Assembly: GCF_003086415.1 (NCBI RefSeq)
Contig: NZ_QEFP02000014.1
Span: 3,496 to 35,495 of the forward strand
From: Candidatus Nanobsidianus stetteri
GTDB taxonomy: Archaea; Nanobdellota; Nanobdellia; Nanobdellales; Nanobdellaceae
DNA length: 32,000 bases
Direction of reading: 5' to 3'
Below the pieces are notes generated by a model. That model did not search any database and was not told the DNA's origin. It was given only the letters and a program-made list of their open reading frames with translations. The first letter of the stretch is position 1. Each line of letters starts with the position of its first letter. Of the stretch, positions 13,424-18,528 are shown piece by piece. The position numbers were made by a program, and so were the translations under genes.

Positions 13424-13903
13424 TTAAGTTGAATAACCACTAGTATAATTTACATAAAAGTTATATAATACTGTTGGTGGACAAACATAGAATGTATATG
13501 ATTCACCATTTAAATAAACATAATAATTTATATATTCTTTATTTGGACATGCACCAATGATTGTATTATTATTAAAATAGAATGATAAAATTGTAGCGGA
13601 ATCATTTAAATAATATAACTCTTCATTTGCCAATTCATTTATTATATAATTATCCAATGCTGTATTATTATAAAATCCTGCGTATATATCTATTACAGGT
13701 ACAGTTACATTATCAAAATAAATTAAAGAATCTAAAAAACCATTTGCAGATTTATATTCAATACCAACAGCATTTAAACCTGCAATATTATTTAGTGTTG
13801 GATTTCCATAGGAAAATATATTAAAGATAAATATAAATAGTAGAACTATAACAATAATTACTGCAGCAATAAATGATAAAAAGAATCCAATTTGTATTTT
13901 CAT
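13424..13903 (-). CDS. Surface-island protein (159 aa), N-terminal anchor or pilin-like helix, 2 Cys
   Basis: Begins MKIQIGFFLSFIAAVIIVIVLLFIFIF. Its start overlaps the upstream stop as ATGA (13900-13903). Confidence 0.75.
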   Translation of the reverse strand: MKIQIGFFLSFIAAVIIVIVLLFIFIFNIFSYGNPTLNNIAGLNAVGIEYKSANGFLDSLIYFDNVTVPVIDIYAGFYNNTALDNYIINELANEELYYLNDSATILSFYFNNNTIIGACPNKEYINYYVYLNGESYTFYVCPPTVLYNFYVNYTSGYST

Positions 13904-14748
13904 TGTATTTGAGTAATTTTACATGAAGATATATTTATTTGGCCTCCAGCAATTATATTACATGTTTCATTATATATTCCATTCATATAAAGATTTCCTA
14001 CACCGTATAAAGATACTATTACTGGTTCTCCACTATCATATTCTGGTAAAGTAATATAATATGATGCTATTGGTTGAATATATACTTCAGTATAATATAC
14101 AGTTCCATAAGTTGCAGTAGAATTGAGTATTTCAGTATTATTTATAAATTGATAGTTTTGATACATATATTCTGTCTCATTATATATATATAAACTATAA
14201 TTATAGAAATAATTGATTAAAAATTGGTTTAAAGATGGTAGATTTTCGTATGTGTAATCTACATTATAAATATTATATGCAACATAATATGGATTAACAT
14301 TTATATCATTTTCAAAACTAAGGTTATATGGATCATATGAATATGAATTACTTATATTGTTAATATCATAGAAAAAGAAGTATATATAATCGTCATAAGA
14401 GAAATTTAAATATGTATATATAACTTCATTTGATTGATTTGATTCATTAGTAAAATAATCTAATGTTCCTGAGATATTCATAAAGCATTGTTGATATACA
14501 TTATTATATTCATTGATAATATTTGGATTGGGAGCATAAAATAATAATAATGGATTTCCTGTATCTTCATATAAACAATAATTTAATCTATCAATTAATA
14601 AACTATTTGTAAATTGCTGATATGTATATTCAGAATACGATTCAATATTAAATAATGCATATAATATTGCTACAATAAAAAATGCGAATATTATAACAAC
14701 CGCAGCAGCAATATATTCAATTATATCTTTTAAAGATAATGATCTCAT
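13900..14748 (-). CDS. Surface-island protein (282 aa), pilin-like N-terminus, 4 Cys, 12 N-x-S/T sequons
   Basis: MRSLSLKDIIEYIAAAVVIIFAFFIV resembles the archaeal class III signal pattern (basic residue, small residue, then x-S-L-x-acidic, then a hydrophobic helix). ATGA overlaps at both ends. Confidence 0.75.
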   Translation of the reverse strand: MRSLSLKDIIEYIAAAVVIIFAFFIVAILYALFNIESYSEYTYQQFTNSLLIDRLNYCLYEDTGNPLLLFYAPNPNIINEYNNVYQQCFMNISGTLDYFTNESNQSNEVIYTYLNFSYDDYIYFFFYDINNISNSYSYDPYNLSFENDINVNPYYVAYNIYNVDYTYENLPSLNQFLINYFYNYSLYIYNETEYMYQNYQFINNTEILNSTATYGTVYYTEVYIQPIASYYITLPEYDSGEPVIVSLYGVGNLYMNGIYNETCNIIAGGQINISSCKITQIQ

Positions 14749-15857
14749 GATGTAGAAGATAATACTGATACATTTAAATATGGTTGGCCTCCAGATTGTA
14801 CACCCACCTTTGATAAAATAATAAACTCTGGAAATACTTGATTACCATTATTATCTACATTTCCTAAATCTAGTTTGAATATATTATCCTGTGAATTATC
14901 TTGTGAATTATAAATGTATGTAAAACTTGTATCACATAAATAATTATTACTACATCCATTATAAAATGTAAACTCGGGATTATAATATATTGACAATGTT
15001 AAATATGGTTGATATACTGTATATTTTCCATTTGGAATTGACAAAAAGAGCCAATTAGTGCTTTGTTGTATAAATTGATTATAATAGCAACTTGCATATG
15101 GACTCGATGTAGCTTGCCAATATTGATATAAGGTAATTGATGCAGTAAATGCTAAATTAAATGCAAAACCAGCTACAAAATCAGCTGGAGGTGGTAAAAC
15201 TTCATCTAATATCATATCTCCAACCTGCATTATAGTAAATTCTGCAGTAGACCACAAGGTAGGTCCCACAGAAGATTGTAATGCATTAAATATATCTCCC
15301 CATATGTTATAGTTTCCGGATGCATATTGTAAAAGTGTAGATTGATATGTATATAATCCATATGTACCAGCAGCAGCTATTGCTGTTTGTTTTGCAATTT
15401 GAGATGAAGATCCAAATACTTTATTTAAAGCATTTAGTAAAGATGTTGTTTTACCACCATACTTTAATCCTGGCAGATATGAAAATACTTCAGCCATAAA
15501 AGAATTTAATGCATCATCTGCAAGTTGTTGCCATAGATCATTTACATAACATTCTCCAATACTAACTAAAAAATCATTATTATTATATAAAGGAATAAAT
15601 AGGGCGGATGATTGTATTGGAGGAATTATCCTAAATTCATAGAAAAATACTGGAGCATTTGTTACAAAAAATGCTGCTGTCATATTCCCAGGTTCTGATG
15701 TTGAATATGTAATAAAACCAGCAACTTCCAATATTAAATAAGGATTATGTGTACCAAATATTCTTGCAATAATATATGGAAAATATATTCCTATTAGTGA
15801 TACAATTATTAAAAATATTGATGCTATTATTGCATCTAATAATTCATCAACATCCAT
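14745..15857 (-). CDS. Surface-island protein (370 aa) with an N-terminal helix and internal Ala/Gly/Thr-rich hydrophobic segments, 4 Cys
   Basis: The N-terminal helix is MDVDELLDAIIASIFLIIVSLIGIYF. Internal segments include QTAIAAAGTYGLY and ADFVAGFAFNLAFTASITLYQYW. One nt separates it from the upstream stop. Confidence 0.75.
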   Translation of the reverse strand: MDVDELLDAIIASIFLIIVSLIGIYFPYIIARIFGTHNPYLILEVAGFITYSTSEPGNMTAAFFVTNAPVFFYEFRIIPPIQSSALFIPLYNNNDFLVSIGECYVNDLWQQLADDALNSFMAEVFSYLPGLKYGGKTTSLLNALNKVFGSSSQIAKQTAIAAAGTYGLYTYQSTLLQYASGNYNIWGDIFNALQSSVGPTLWSTAEFTIMQVGDMILDEVLPPPADFVAGFAFNLAFTASITLYQYWQATSSPYASCYYNQFIQQSTNWLFLSIPNGKYTVYQPYLTLSIYYNPEFTFYNGCSNNYLCDTSFTYIYNSQDNSQDNIFKLDLGNVDNNGNQVFPEFIILSKVGVQSGGQPYLNVSVLSSTS

Positions 15858-15858
15858 A

Positions 15859-16963: not shown

Positions 16964-17138
16964 AGTTGTTATTATTTATACTATTTACAACATTTGTGCC
17001 ATTTGTTTGCGGTATACTATTAAATAAATTTGCTCCACCTTTAAAATAAAAGTACATAAATATTGCTAATAATACTAGAGCAACTATAAATAATATTATT
17101 GCTACTAAAAATGTATTTACTTGTGTTTTTTTATCCAT
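16953..17138 (-). CDS. Mini pilin-like protein, 61 aa
   Basis: MDKKTQVNTFLVAIILFIVALVLLAIFMYFYF is followed by an Asn/Gly/Ser tail. It overlaps both neighbouring micro-ORFs. Confidence 0.65.
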   Translation of the reverse strand: MDKKTQVNTFLVAIILFIVALVLLAIFMYFYFKGGANLFNSIPQTNGTNVVNSINNNNYGG

Positions 17139-17277
17139 TTCCCCCTATTAATTGATATTGAGCAAATATATTTATATTTAGCCCTAATTTTGGTCCCAAT
17201 ATAACAAAAACAAATATTAATATTAATACAGTAAATATCAATGCAAGAATTATCTTTAGAAGTTCTCCAGTTTCCAT
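17131..17277 (-). CDS. Micro-ORF, 48 aa single-helix membrane or pilin-like protein (not in the ORF track)
   Basis: Hand translation gives METGELLKIILALIFTVLILIFVFVILGPKLGLNINIFAQYQLIGGNG. Its stop overlaps the next gene's start (AATGGATAA). Confidence 0.5.
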   Translation of the reverse strand: METGELLKIILALIFTVLILIFVFVILGPKLGLNINIFAQYQLIGGNG

Positions 17278-17307
17278 TATAAATCTAAAAACTTTGCAAT
17301 TTATAAA

Positions 17308-18528
17308 TTAACTTCCACCTGAACTTGAACTTGAACCTGAAATCGATGTTAATAGAATTGCCCTATTTCCCCCTTCATATGTATATTCAATTATTATGCC
17401 ATTTGGTAATTGCATATTAGCTGGAATAATTATAACTTGATTCGGTGGAAAATTATTTGAAGTGGACCAGTTTTCATCAACATTACCATTTTGACCTACT
17501 TCATATGAATTTACTAATAATTTATTATATACATTTGAATCTTGAGGATTTGAAGACATTACACTAGGATCTCTATTACTTAAAACCTGACAAGCAATAT
17601 TGAAATTACTATTATATATCACATTATCTCCATACATAACTTCTAATGGAACCTGATTATAATATTCCATCATATCTAACATACATAAAACATCATTTAA
17701 TGTAACTATATAGTTACTGTTATAGTCAAATAATAATAGGGCATATTCATTATGATTACCTGCTATAGTTACACTTTGTCCTAATGTTTCTCCATATGTA
17801 TAAAATAAATATTTTGCAATTAAATATGTTGCATATAAATTTTGACATTCCGATGATGTTGGATCACTACAATATCCTTGTTGTTCTATATAATTTGCAT
17901 ATGATTGATTTAAATCGTTAAGCATTTCATTTACTTGAGCGTTACCAATATTGCTTAAATTCACAGCTACTACGCCTTCTGGAACTAAATAATATAAAAT
18001 TGGGTCTTGTATCGCATGTGCCATATTATTTAAGGCATATGATAAAGCATCTAAGCCAAGTGTTCCAAATAATAAACCCGCACCTAAAGGATTTGTAAAT
18101 ACTTTTTTATATGCATTTCCAATACCAGATGCTATTTTATCTTTTGGAAAACCTCCATTCTCAATATCTTCAAATAGTAGATATTTCTTATTTATATTCT
18201 GTATAGTTTCTTCATCATATCCTATACTCTCCAAAAACTCTACATTCTCATCATAATTTGCCTTAATTCCAGAAACAATACCAGCAACGGTTGTAGCAAT
18301 AAAAACTCCTAATAATACATCATTTGCAATTGTTGCAGCATCAGATATTCCCTGTGCTACTGGATTTATAGTAAAACTTATACTTCCTGCTAATGCATAT
18401 CCAAATTTTGCTTCTGGTCTACCAGCATAACTAAGACCTTTTAATACATTGAAGAAAACTATTATTACAAATATTATAATAATAATTACAATAATAAGTT
18501 CTATTACACTATCACTTATAGATTTCAT
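17308..18528 (-). CDS. Surface-island protein (406 aa from ATG 18528; 423 aa if TTG 18579), first gene of the operon, 4 Cys
   Basis: From the ATG: MKSISDSVIELIIVIIIIIFVIIVFF, the same M-K/R-S/G leader style as its paralogous neighbours. It has further hydrophobic Ala/Gly-rich stretches (DVLLGVFIATTVAGIVSGI, NPLGAGLLFGTLGLDAL) and a C-terminal SGSSSSSGGS tail. Confidence 0.75.
   Translation of the reverse strand: MKSISDSVIELIIVIIIIIFVIIVFFNVLKGLSYAGRPEAKFGYALAGSISFTINPVAQGISDAATIANDVLLGVFIATTVAGIVSGIKANYDENVEFLESIGYDEETIQNINKKYLLFEDIENGGFPKDKIASGIGNAYKKVFTNPLGAGLLFGTLGLDALSYALNNMAHAIQDPILYYLVPEGVVAVNLSNIGNAQVNEMLNDLNQSYANYIEQQGYCSDPTSSECQNLYATYLIAKYLFYTYGETLGQSVTIAGNHNEYALLLFDYNSNYIVTLNDVLCMLDMMEYYNQVPLEVMYGDNVIYNSNFNIACQVLSNRDPSVMSSNPQDSNVYNKLLVNSYEVGQNGNVDENWSTSNNFPPNQVIIIPANMQLPNGIIIEYTYEGGNRAILLTSISGSSSSSGGS

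Follow-up and report, generated by a model that had tools for sequence, protein, structure and literature searches.

Bacterial minor-pilin and pseudopilin operons (gspGHIJK, fimU-pilVWXY1E, comGC-GG) hold four to six pilin-like genes that often overlap, usually beside ATPase and platform genes, and their products come together, in defined ratios, as a tip or priming complex. Translational coupling of neighbouring genes yields proportional, not necessarily equimolar, synthesis. For archaea and bacteria alike, Huber et al. (2023) treated stop-to-start distances of −8 to +10 nucleotides (nt) as predictive of coupling by termination–reinitiation; in H. volcanii and E. coli, the products of 30–45% of such pairs are subunits of heteromeric complexes, a 4.5–8-fold enrichment, and a spacer of about 20 nt nearly abolishes termination–reinitiation (PMC10666635). 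Makarova et al. described a nanoarchaeal ATPase of the type IV pilus type, for which pilins 'could not be identified' (PMC4858521), and Wurch et al. directed attention to 'conserved predicted membrane proteins' in the search for the basis of host attachment or metabolite uptake (PMC4935971). Here we describe a block of nine consecutive minus-strand genes, g1–g9, running from position 18528 down to 11899 of a 32,000-nt stretch of Candidatus Nanobsidianus stetteri (assembly GCF_003086415.1, contig NZ_QEFP02000014.1, positions 3,496 to 35,495; hereafter, the window), as read from the open reading frame (ORF) list and the sequence. On balance, and with modest confidence, we favour the reading that these genes encode subunits of one lineage-specific surface assembly, made from three transcription units, with translation of g2–g8 coupled.

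A conserved block with tight internal junctions

The block encodes three micro-proteins, g2–g4, of 48–61 amino acids (aa; 43–63 aa among orthologues) and six larger products of 159–497 aa (Table 1). The open g1 frame reaches back to a TTG at 18579, but the start seen in orthologues (MKSISD) favours the ATG at 18528; for g2–g9, every start is the earliest start codon that follows an in-frame stop, and it matches the N termini of the orthologues. From g1 to g9, the stop-to-start distances are +30, −8 (ATGGATAA), −11 (ATGGAGGCTGA), +1, +1, −4, −4 and +31 nt. Six tight junctions (−11 to +1 nt), four of which are true overlaps, thus link seven genes, g2–g8. A previous sequence-only reading had listed the junction coordinates and strings, all of which proved correct against the ORF list and the sequence; it had counted eight chained genes where there are seven, and the range it gave, 13424–18528, leaves out g9. 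The block is bounded by a divergent gene and by a convergent TYW3 gene, whose 3′ end overlaps that of g9 by 24 nt (11899–11922). GC content is about 24% in the window, and that of the block matches that of its flanks. Archaeal housekeeping genes in the window include those for alanyl-tRNA synthetase (AlaRS), arginyl-tRNA synthetase (ArgRS), DnaG, FBP aldolase/phosphatase (FBPase), fibrillarin, Nop5, S10, L21e and Rpb4.

An identical nine-gene order was found in nine reference genomes (Nst1, five Nanopusillus metagenome-assembled genomes, N. acidilobi 7A, Nanoarchaeota archaeon YN1 and Nanobdella aerobiophila MJ1, where the block is MJ1_0042-0050), and the block was also met in 72 metagenome loci. 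In the reference genomes its chromosomal site is fixed, between a TYW3/dnaG/FBPase side and an L21e/Rpb4 side. An NCBI entry, 'hypothetical protein [Ca. Nanobsidianus stetteri]', matches g1 at 100% identity, and Nst1_044 matches g6 at 89%. Even where the proteins share about 30% identity, the order of the genes and the lengths of their junctions persist. Counted over only those of the 72 metagenome loci that hold both genes of a given pair, the junctions are nearly invariant (Table 1), and values in the nine reference genomes are similar. Within YN1 and Nanobdella, whose large proteins are 28–47% identical to those here, the junctions are shifted by a few nt and are still tight; Nanobdella g9 overlaps g8 by 4 nt, and the 31-nt g8/g9 spacer is absent there. 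One distant metagenome lineage (L016, 5544–5888) carries g3 and g4 as a single in-frame 114-aa ORF with two helices, which is either an assembly error or a real fusion that would link the two micro-proteins in function. The block is specific to Nanoarchaeota, comprising Nanopusillus/Nanobsidianus, YN1, Nanobdella and a few more distant metagenome lineages. The sequence-only reading had named a lack of co-occurrence in related genomes as one refutation; the nine genes occur together, in the same order, in the nine reference genomes and the 72 metagenome loci.

How unusual the tight chaining is was judged against 52 same-strand neighbour pairs outside the cluster, drawn from five nanoarchaeal genome fragments. 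Gaps of ≤1 nt account for 18 of the 52 (35%), gaps of 2–19 nt for two, 20–45 nt for 19 and >45 nt for 13. Spacing is bimodal, at ≤1 or ≥20 nt, over the whole window and the loci L001, L013, L015 and L016. If pairs were independent, six tight junctions running would have a probability of 0.35^6, or about 0.002; in this streamlined genome, however, co-transcribed genes are joined tightly as a rule, and a run of six is expected inside a transcription unit. Overlaps also join unrelated genes of the window (AlaRS/coiled-coil protein, Rpb4/DUF655 protein, S10/Nop5), so overlap alone is no proof of a complex, and because a third of same-strand pairs are tight, such junctions predict little about function. 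The earlier statement that chaining is typical of complex subunits agrees with the enrichment in H. volcanii and E. coli (PMC10666635) and is tempered by the unrelated overlapping genes of this window.

All g2–g8 junctions lie in or adjoining the range of −8 to +10 nt: g2/g3, g4/g5, g5/g6, g6/g7 and g7/g8 fall within it, and g3/g4, at −11 here, is at −8 in many relatives. The g1/g2 (+30) and g8/g9 (+31) junctions fall outside, and since a spacer of about 20 nt almost ends coupling, g1 and g9 would not be coupled here. For g2–g8, coupling is a reasonable reading of the junctions. What survives of the proposed chain of subunits is therefore a conserved, co-oriented block whose g2–g8 section is in coupling range; g1 and g9 lie beyond it, and a fixed stoichiometry for all nine products does not sit with spacers of about 30 nt where about 20 nt abolishes coupling (PMC10666635). 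A G-run before g3 was considered as a Shine–Dalgarno motif and rejected, as it lies 2 nt from the ATG and encodes a conserved Gly-Gly of g2.

Promoter motifs and probable transcription units

Runs of T are an archaeal termination signal, and one such run, together with a box A, lies in the g1/g2 spacer. This spacer is exactly 30 nt in 52 of 54 loci and occurs in six variants in all, 48 of the 54 loci having one of three near-identical ones, whereas the genes that flank it show a dS of about 0.25. It is putatively a weak terminator combined with the promoter of a leaderless g2–g8 mRNA. Likewise, the octamer upstream of g1 is a putative promoter of a leaderless g1 mRNA, and the g8/g9 spacer a putative g9 promoter. 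The positions of these elements were compared with the genome at large by scoring starts of the box A hexamer pattern TT[TA]A[TA]A at −32 to −28 from the ATG. Of 57 genes outside the cluster that are preceded by a gap of 20 nt or more, 41 have the hexamer there, with a sharp peak at −30/−29; among tightly joined genes, it is present in 3 of 23. Across distinct upstream sequences of the cluster genes, the hexamer is frequent before g1, g2 and g9 and rare before g3–g6 and g8 (Table 1). No Shine–Dalgarno motif was found upstream of g2 or g9. In N. equitans, box A (TTTAAA) lies 26–27 nt upstream of transcription starts (PMC3491384); with this spacing, a box A at about −30 implies leaderless mRNAs. 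For these genomes the result suggests a promoter rule, a box A start at about −30 from the ATG with mostly leaderless mRNAs, that helps to call transcription units.

Because the spacers are conserved and their box A stands at −30, as is typical of the genome, the block is most simply divided into three units, and it probably comprises three transcription units, g1, g2–g8 and g9, and not one nine-gene operon. The sequence-only reading had proposed the single operon and had itself named internal promoters as the observation that would refute it; judged by motifs alone, internal promoter signatures with box A at −30/−29 are present in both spacers, before g2 and before g9, and a terminator-like run in one of them.

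Further observations concern the region around g1. A two-codon upstream ORF, ATGATATGA, has an ATGA overlap with the g1 start (Table 1), and an upstream ORF at this place (ATGATATGA or ATGGTATGA) is found in most relatives, not all. There is a second TATA-like run at −15 to −5 upstream of g1. One reading frame runs from the g1 stop through the 30-nt spacer to the g2 ATG (17278–17310), such that read-through would give a g1–g2 fusion; programmed read-through was rejected, as the spacer is 32 nt in YN1 and 34 nt in Nanobdella, and the shared frame is probably incidental.

Helix-anchored products and readings of the block

Each of the nine products has one strong N-terminal hydrophobic segment, and g1 has a second at about residues 64–90. 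Cysteine counts from g1 to g9 are all even (4, 0, 0, 0, 6, 4, 4, 2 and 12), all nine products have few Lys/Arg and an excess of acidic residues, and N-x-S/T sequons number up to 15 per product (12 in g7 and 15 in g9). This is the composition of extracellular proteins in an acidophile-associated organism. The g1 N terminus is class III-like (MKS/ISDSVIELII...), and its C-terminal domain is conserved and contains cysteines; throughout the g1 family, its most distant lineages included, the protein starts with [KR][GAS], then [IVLQ]S, then a hydrophobic run. Similar leaders, [KR]-[G/A/S] before a hydrophobic helix, are found in most g3, g5, g7 and g9 orthologues and in most lineages, as in the Nanobdella g3 orthologue, whose class III signal-like start is MAYHKGQISTFLVAII, and here in g5 (MRG/DFLRIIFD...), g7 (MRS/LSLKDIIEYI...) and g9 (MKTS/LAPVALFLGVII...). 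The g2 and g8 N termini are atypical of this pattern, g8 nevertheless having an N-terminal helix, and g6 lacks it: there an acidic N terminus leads into a helix that has invariant residues, and beyond this come a central helical bundle and, at the C terminus, a beta domain.

Compared with Nanobdella, the micro-proteins are 56–69% identical (68% for g2) as against 28–37% for the large genes. Their ratios of nonsynonymous to synonymous substitution (dN/dS) are about 0.21 for g2 (42 distinct sequences), 0.20 for g3 and 0.25 for g4; the g6 value is left out, as equal-length sequences were compared without alignment. As the best-conserved members of the block, with dN/dS of 0.20–0.25, the micro-ORFs are real genes. 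Also against Nanobdella, conservation over the first 35 residues exceeds that of the remainder in seven of the nine genes, g5 being marginal; the difference is 71% versus 22% in g2 and 59% versus 34% in g6. Such conservation of the N-terminal helix suggests specific helix–helix packing and contacts rather than a generic anchor.

Family and fold searches assigned the products to no described group. Scans of the nine proteins and 58 orthologues with Pfam, NCBIfam and PHROGs returned hydrophobic-helix noise alone; PHROGs gave no significant match, its three weak ones being to micro-proteins at E 0.005–0.02. Profile searches of g1, g5, g6, g7, g8 and g9 against PDB sequences gave no match. The AF2 model of g6 (pLDDT 71) has a helix at residues 3–34, an inserted helical bundle and a C-terminal beta domain, and that of g1 (pLDDT 74) has a helix at 3–32 and a confident alpha/beta C-terminal domain mostly above 90; Foldseek of both models against the PDB and BFVD gave no match at E < 0.03, and thus none that was significant to any PDB chain, pilins included. 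An all-against-all hhalign comparison of the nine families gave weak similarity that was confined to the N-terminal helix, which is why we do not consider the nine proteins paralogues. Searched exhaustively with HMMER, the g1 profile matched 29 of 1.84 billion cluster representatives, all nanoarchaeal or metagenomic and none attributable to N. equitans. The tags MJ1_0042-0050, Nps_00225-00255, YN1_3840 and Nst1_04x were not mentioned in the literature searched, and no cluster gene is assigned an arCOG in the gene table of N. acidilobi, from which g2 and g4 are absent altogether (PMC4935971, Suppl. Data 1). No match was obtained among the nine proteins and orthologues with the Pfam Class_IIIsignal or the NCBIfam archaeal N-terminal models, nor with the Arl families (ArlF/G/X/C/D/E), and the cluster does not lie beside arl genes. 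Missing archaellum parts were considered and rejected, as Nst1 is reported with all seven archaellum components (PMC4858521).

Taken together, these data describe nine unrelated proteins that would be anchored by helices and have extracellular, glycosylated, disulfide-bonded bodies, and in the favoured model the N-terminal helices would bring them together in one cell-envelope or surface structure. What the analysis shows is the structure of the genes, their conservation, the junction statistics, where the promoter motifs lie and the composition of the proteins; the transcripts, the coupling, the complex and its function are inferred. Leaderless transcripts would begin at the g1, g2 and g9 ATGs, driven by box A about 30 nt upstream. 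On the g2–g8 message, ribosomes would move from gene to gene by termination–reinitiation across the junctions of −11 to +1 nt, keeping the seven middle products proportional, not necessarily equal, and g1 and g9 levels would be independently adjustable. The leading candidate for the structure would be a type IV filament-like fibre or a set of minor pilins at a tip. In a more specific and doubtful form of this proposal, the block would encode the filament that goes with the orphan type IV pilus-type ATPase of nanoarchaea, with three micro-pilins and six larger pilin-like subunits forming a lineage-specific fibre or tip complex; if true, the module would serve attachment to, and perhaps a channel into, the crenarchaeal host.

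The tight junctions could also be explained by genome compaction alone, as a by-product of streamlining in a symbiont genome of about 0.6 Mb. The products would then be co-expressed surface proteins that act separately, for example adhesins or S-layer accessories, and would form no stoichiometric complex. To this explanation we give an appreciable minority chance. It gains from the same-strand background, in which unrelated genes are joined as tightly as those of the block, from convergent overlaps as well (4 nt between dnaG and the 157-aa gene next to it, 24 nt between TYW3 and g9), from the fact that the nine proteins are not paralogues and from the relaxation of some junctions in distant lineages. 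It does not readily account for an order and junction lengths that are held to about 30% identity, for N-terminal helices and micro-proteins that are better conserved than the ectodomains, which is unusual for simple anchors, or for the enrichment of complex subunits among tight pairs in H. volcanii and E. coli (PMC10666635). Alternatively, one promoter upstream of g1 would drive a single nine-gene mRNA in which the spacers are short untranslated gaps, giving fixed ratios and one complex. All nine genes point the same way and none of the gaps exceeds 31 nt, g9 and g8 overlap by 4 nt in Nanobdella and read-through of the weak T5 terminator is plausible; even so, we think this arrangement improbable, given that the spacers are as conserved as coding sequence and hold box A at the genome-typical −30, that g2 and g9 lack a Shine–Dalgarno motif and would have no obvious translation initiation unless at a leaderless 5′ end, and that a spacer of at least 20 nt abolishes termination–reinitiation (PMC10666635).

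Orphan proteins with N-terminal helices, tight packing and small hydrophobic proteins are also what an integrated virus or mobile element encoding membrane structural proteins would show. Such an origin is hardly credible here and was rejected on account of the synteny, fixed within the core genome: the block keeps its chromosomal position (dnaG/FBPase/TYW3 to L21e/Rpb4) in genera that are about 30% identical, its GC matches the flanks, neither an integrase nor repeats nor a tRNA-adjacent boundary was observed, and the searches gave no significant PHROGs matches and no BFVD fold matches.

The favoured reading of a coupled surface assembly, and its pilin-like form above all, has to bear several results that weigh against it. 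Box A-like hexamers are easily found in DNA of 24% GC, and those before g7 are ambiguous, lying inside the codons of a conserved YLNVS motif. Two distant lineages keep the gene order and loosen some junctions (+86 and +53 nt in L013; +9 and +302 nt in L016), and g1 stands alone among the genes shown in lineage L015. The cluster proteins are undetected in the N. acidilobi proteome, for which abundance values are given for some listed proteins only (PMC4935971). With regard to pilins, the g2 and g6 N termini are acidic and lack K/R, and a K/R before a hydrophobic helix is equally expected of uncleaved signal anchors. The Pilin_N model matched 2 of the 58 orthologues, at a best E of 0.019, below the cut-off; pilin models are, however, weak at this composition, because they also miss a textbook-like class III protein encoded elsewhere in the window. 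An assembly ATPase, a TadC/ArlJ platform and a prepilin peptidase were found neither in the 32-kb window nor in the 10-kb flanks of the block in Nst1, Nanopusillus, Nanobdella and L016, and Makarova et al. found no prepilin peptidase in two nanoarchaea (PMC4858521).

The chained start/stop overlaps themselves are ordinary for this genome, and the interest of the cluster is as an uncharacterised surface or attachment candidate, and of its three micro-ORFs the N. acidilobi annotation lacks two, g2 and g4. As a conserved, syntenic block that belongs to no described family and is confined to Nanoarchaeota, it therefore offers a concrete set of candidates for studies of the envelope and of attachment.

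Neighbouring genes and comparison with described systems

Table 1. The nine-gene block, its regulatory elements and other features of the window. Hexamer, distinct upstream sequences with the box A hexamer at −32 to −28 from the ATG; junction, distance to the next gene of the block in metagenome loci.
Feature	Position	Strand	Description	Hexamer	Junction
Upstream ORF	18525–18533	minus	ATGATATGA		
Box A/TATA-like octamer	18551–18558	minus	TTAATAAA, −30 to −23 from g1 ATG		
g1	17308–18528	minus	406 aa, ATG start	36/39	+30 nt, 44/45
g1/g2 spacer	17278–17307	minus	TTTATAAATTGCAAAGTTTTTAGATTTATA, 30 nt, conserved		
Box A	17300–17307	minus	TTTATAAA, in g1/g2 spacer		
T5 run	17287–17291	minus	In g1/g2 spacer		
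g2	17131–17277	minus	48-aa micro-protein, single helix (METGELLKIILALIF...)	35/37	−8 nt, 50/50
g3	16953–17138	minus	61-aa micro-protein, start 8 nt inside g2 end	0–2 (each of g3–g6 and g8)	−8, −11 or −14 nt, 46/46
g4	16802–16963	minus	53-aa micro-protein, start 11 nt within g3	0–2	+1 nt, 38/42; +4 nt, 4/42
g5	15859–16800	minus	313 aa, 1 nt after g4 stop (TAATATG)	0–2	+1 nt, 26/26
g6	14745–15857	minus	370 aa, 1 nt after g5 stop (TAATATG)	0–2	−4 nt, 19/20 (odd value a script mis-assignment artefact)
g7	13900–14748	minus	282 aa, ATGA overlap with g6	16/27	−4 nt, 16/16
g8	13424–13903	minus	159 aa, ATGA overlap with g7	0–2	+25 to +39 nt, 12/13 (odd value a script mis-assignment artefact)
g8/g9 spacer	13393–13423	minus	AGTTAATAATTTTAAAATTTATTGAATTTAT, 31 nt, box A-like TTAATA from −29		
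g9	11899–13392	minus	497 aa, largest product	18/23	
Divergent neighbour	18621–19850	plus	409 aa		
TYW3 gene	11326–11922	plus	Convergent with g9		
157-aa protein gene	10847–11320	minus	N-terminal helix		
879-aa protein gene	21136–23775	minus	N-terminal helix		
62-aa micro-ORF	23772–23960	minus	Single helix (MKSNISIDMVIIIVIAL...)		
VKOR homologue	23993–24559	minus	Pfam E = 6e-21		
Repeated motif	1794–1812, 2603–2621, 3756–3774	plus	TGTTACTAWAAGATARYAA		
Genes following the motif	1840–2505, 2653–3465, 3802–4503	plus	Consecutive		
tRNA-Leu (tag anticodon)	4511–4594	minus	ARAGORN		
100-aa protein gene	30446–30748	plus	Class III signal (MVKKGQSLSINTLIILIIG...)		

The 157-aa protein gene lies just past TYW3, on the cluster strand, in every relative; it overlaps the end of dnaG and is a possible tenth member of the block. 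On the other side, the product of the divergent neighbour has a Sec-type signal, a Ser/Thr/Asn-rich stalk and a C-terminal membrane anchor. Beyond it, the 62-aa single-helix micro-ORF has an ATGA overlap with the start of the 879-aa gene. A small and large pair of this kind is also present in Nst1 (62 + 869 aa) and Nanobdella (60 + 790 aa), and the pair beside the cluster looks like a second module of similar style. The homologue of vitamin K epoxide reductase (VKOR) is consistent with extracytoplasmic disulfide formation in the Cys-rich proteins encoded nearby. A 100-aa protein with a textbook class III signal and a Ser/Thr-rich tail, missed by Pfam, is likely to be a stand-alone pilin. Elsewhere in the window, a partly palindromic motif (GTTACTA...TAGTAAC) stands about 46 nt upstream of the ATGs of three consecutive genes, for which it may be a shared operator; two of their products, of 221 and 233 aa, are paralogues that are 42% identical. 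A tRNA-Leu gene was called by ARAGORN, and the Rfam tRNA model gave no report at the gathering threshold.

Set beside described systems, the g2–g8 section resembles the coupled overlapping gene pairs of Huber et al. (2019, PMC6728339; 2023, PMC10666635) in its co-orientation, in its −4 (ATGA), −8 and +1 junctions and in the downstream starts of g4, g7 and g8, which have no recognisable Shine–Dalgarno motif. It differs from them in that the chain here is broken by two spacers of about 30 nt, beyond coupling range. With the bacterial minor-pilin operons, which belong to another domain of life, the block is not known to share sequence or fold similarity. Flp of Tad pili and EpdE/MMP1685 of M. maripaludis are short mature pilins with little beyond the N-terminal helix. 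The micro-proteins g2–g4 are similar to these very short pilins in size and unlike them in that no Flp motif or EppA-type site was recognised in g2–g4.

The archaeal type IV filament loci that we compared were the 11-gene Epd locus of M. maripaludis and those of Thermoproteales clade 4 (PMC4858521; bioRxiv 10.64898/2026.04.22.720090). Unlike them, the block has no ATPase, platform or peptidase gene nearby, no pilin model match and no arCOG for those of its genes that are annotated in N. acidilobi, and two of its N termini are acidic. Like them, it consists of adjacent genes for small and large proteins mixed, with a short charged N terminus before a hydrophobic helix and with conserved, even-numbered cysteines, and its divergent neighbour, with a Sec signal and a C-terminal anchor, resembles their S-layer-like components. 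A set of pilins is thus the leading mechanistic analogy for the block, a tentative one to be placed between doubtful and possible, and is offered as an analogy and not as a classification.

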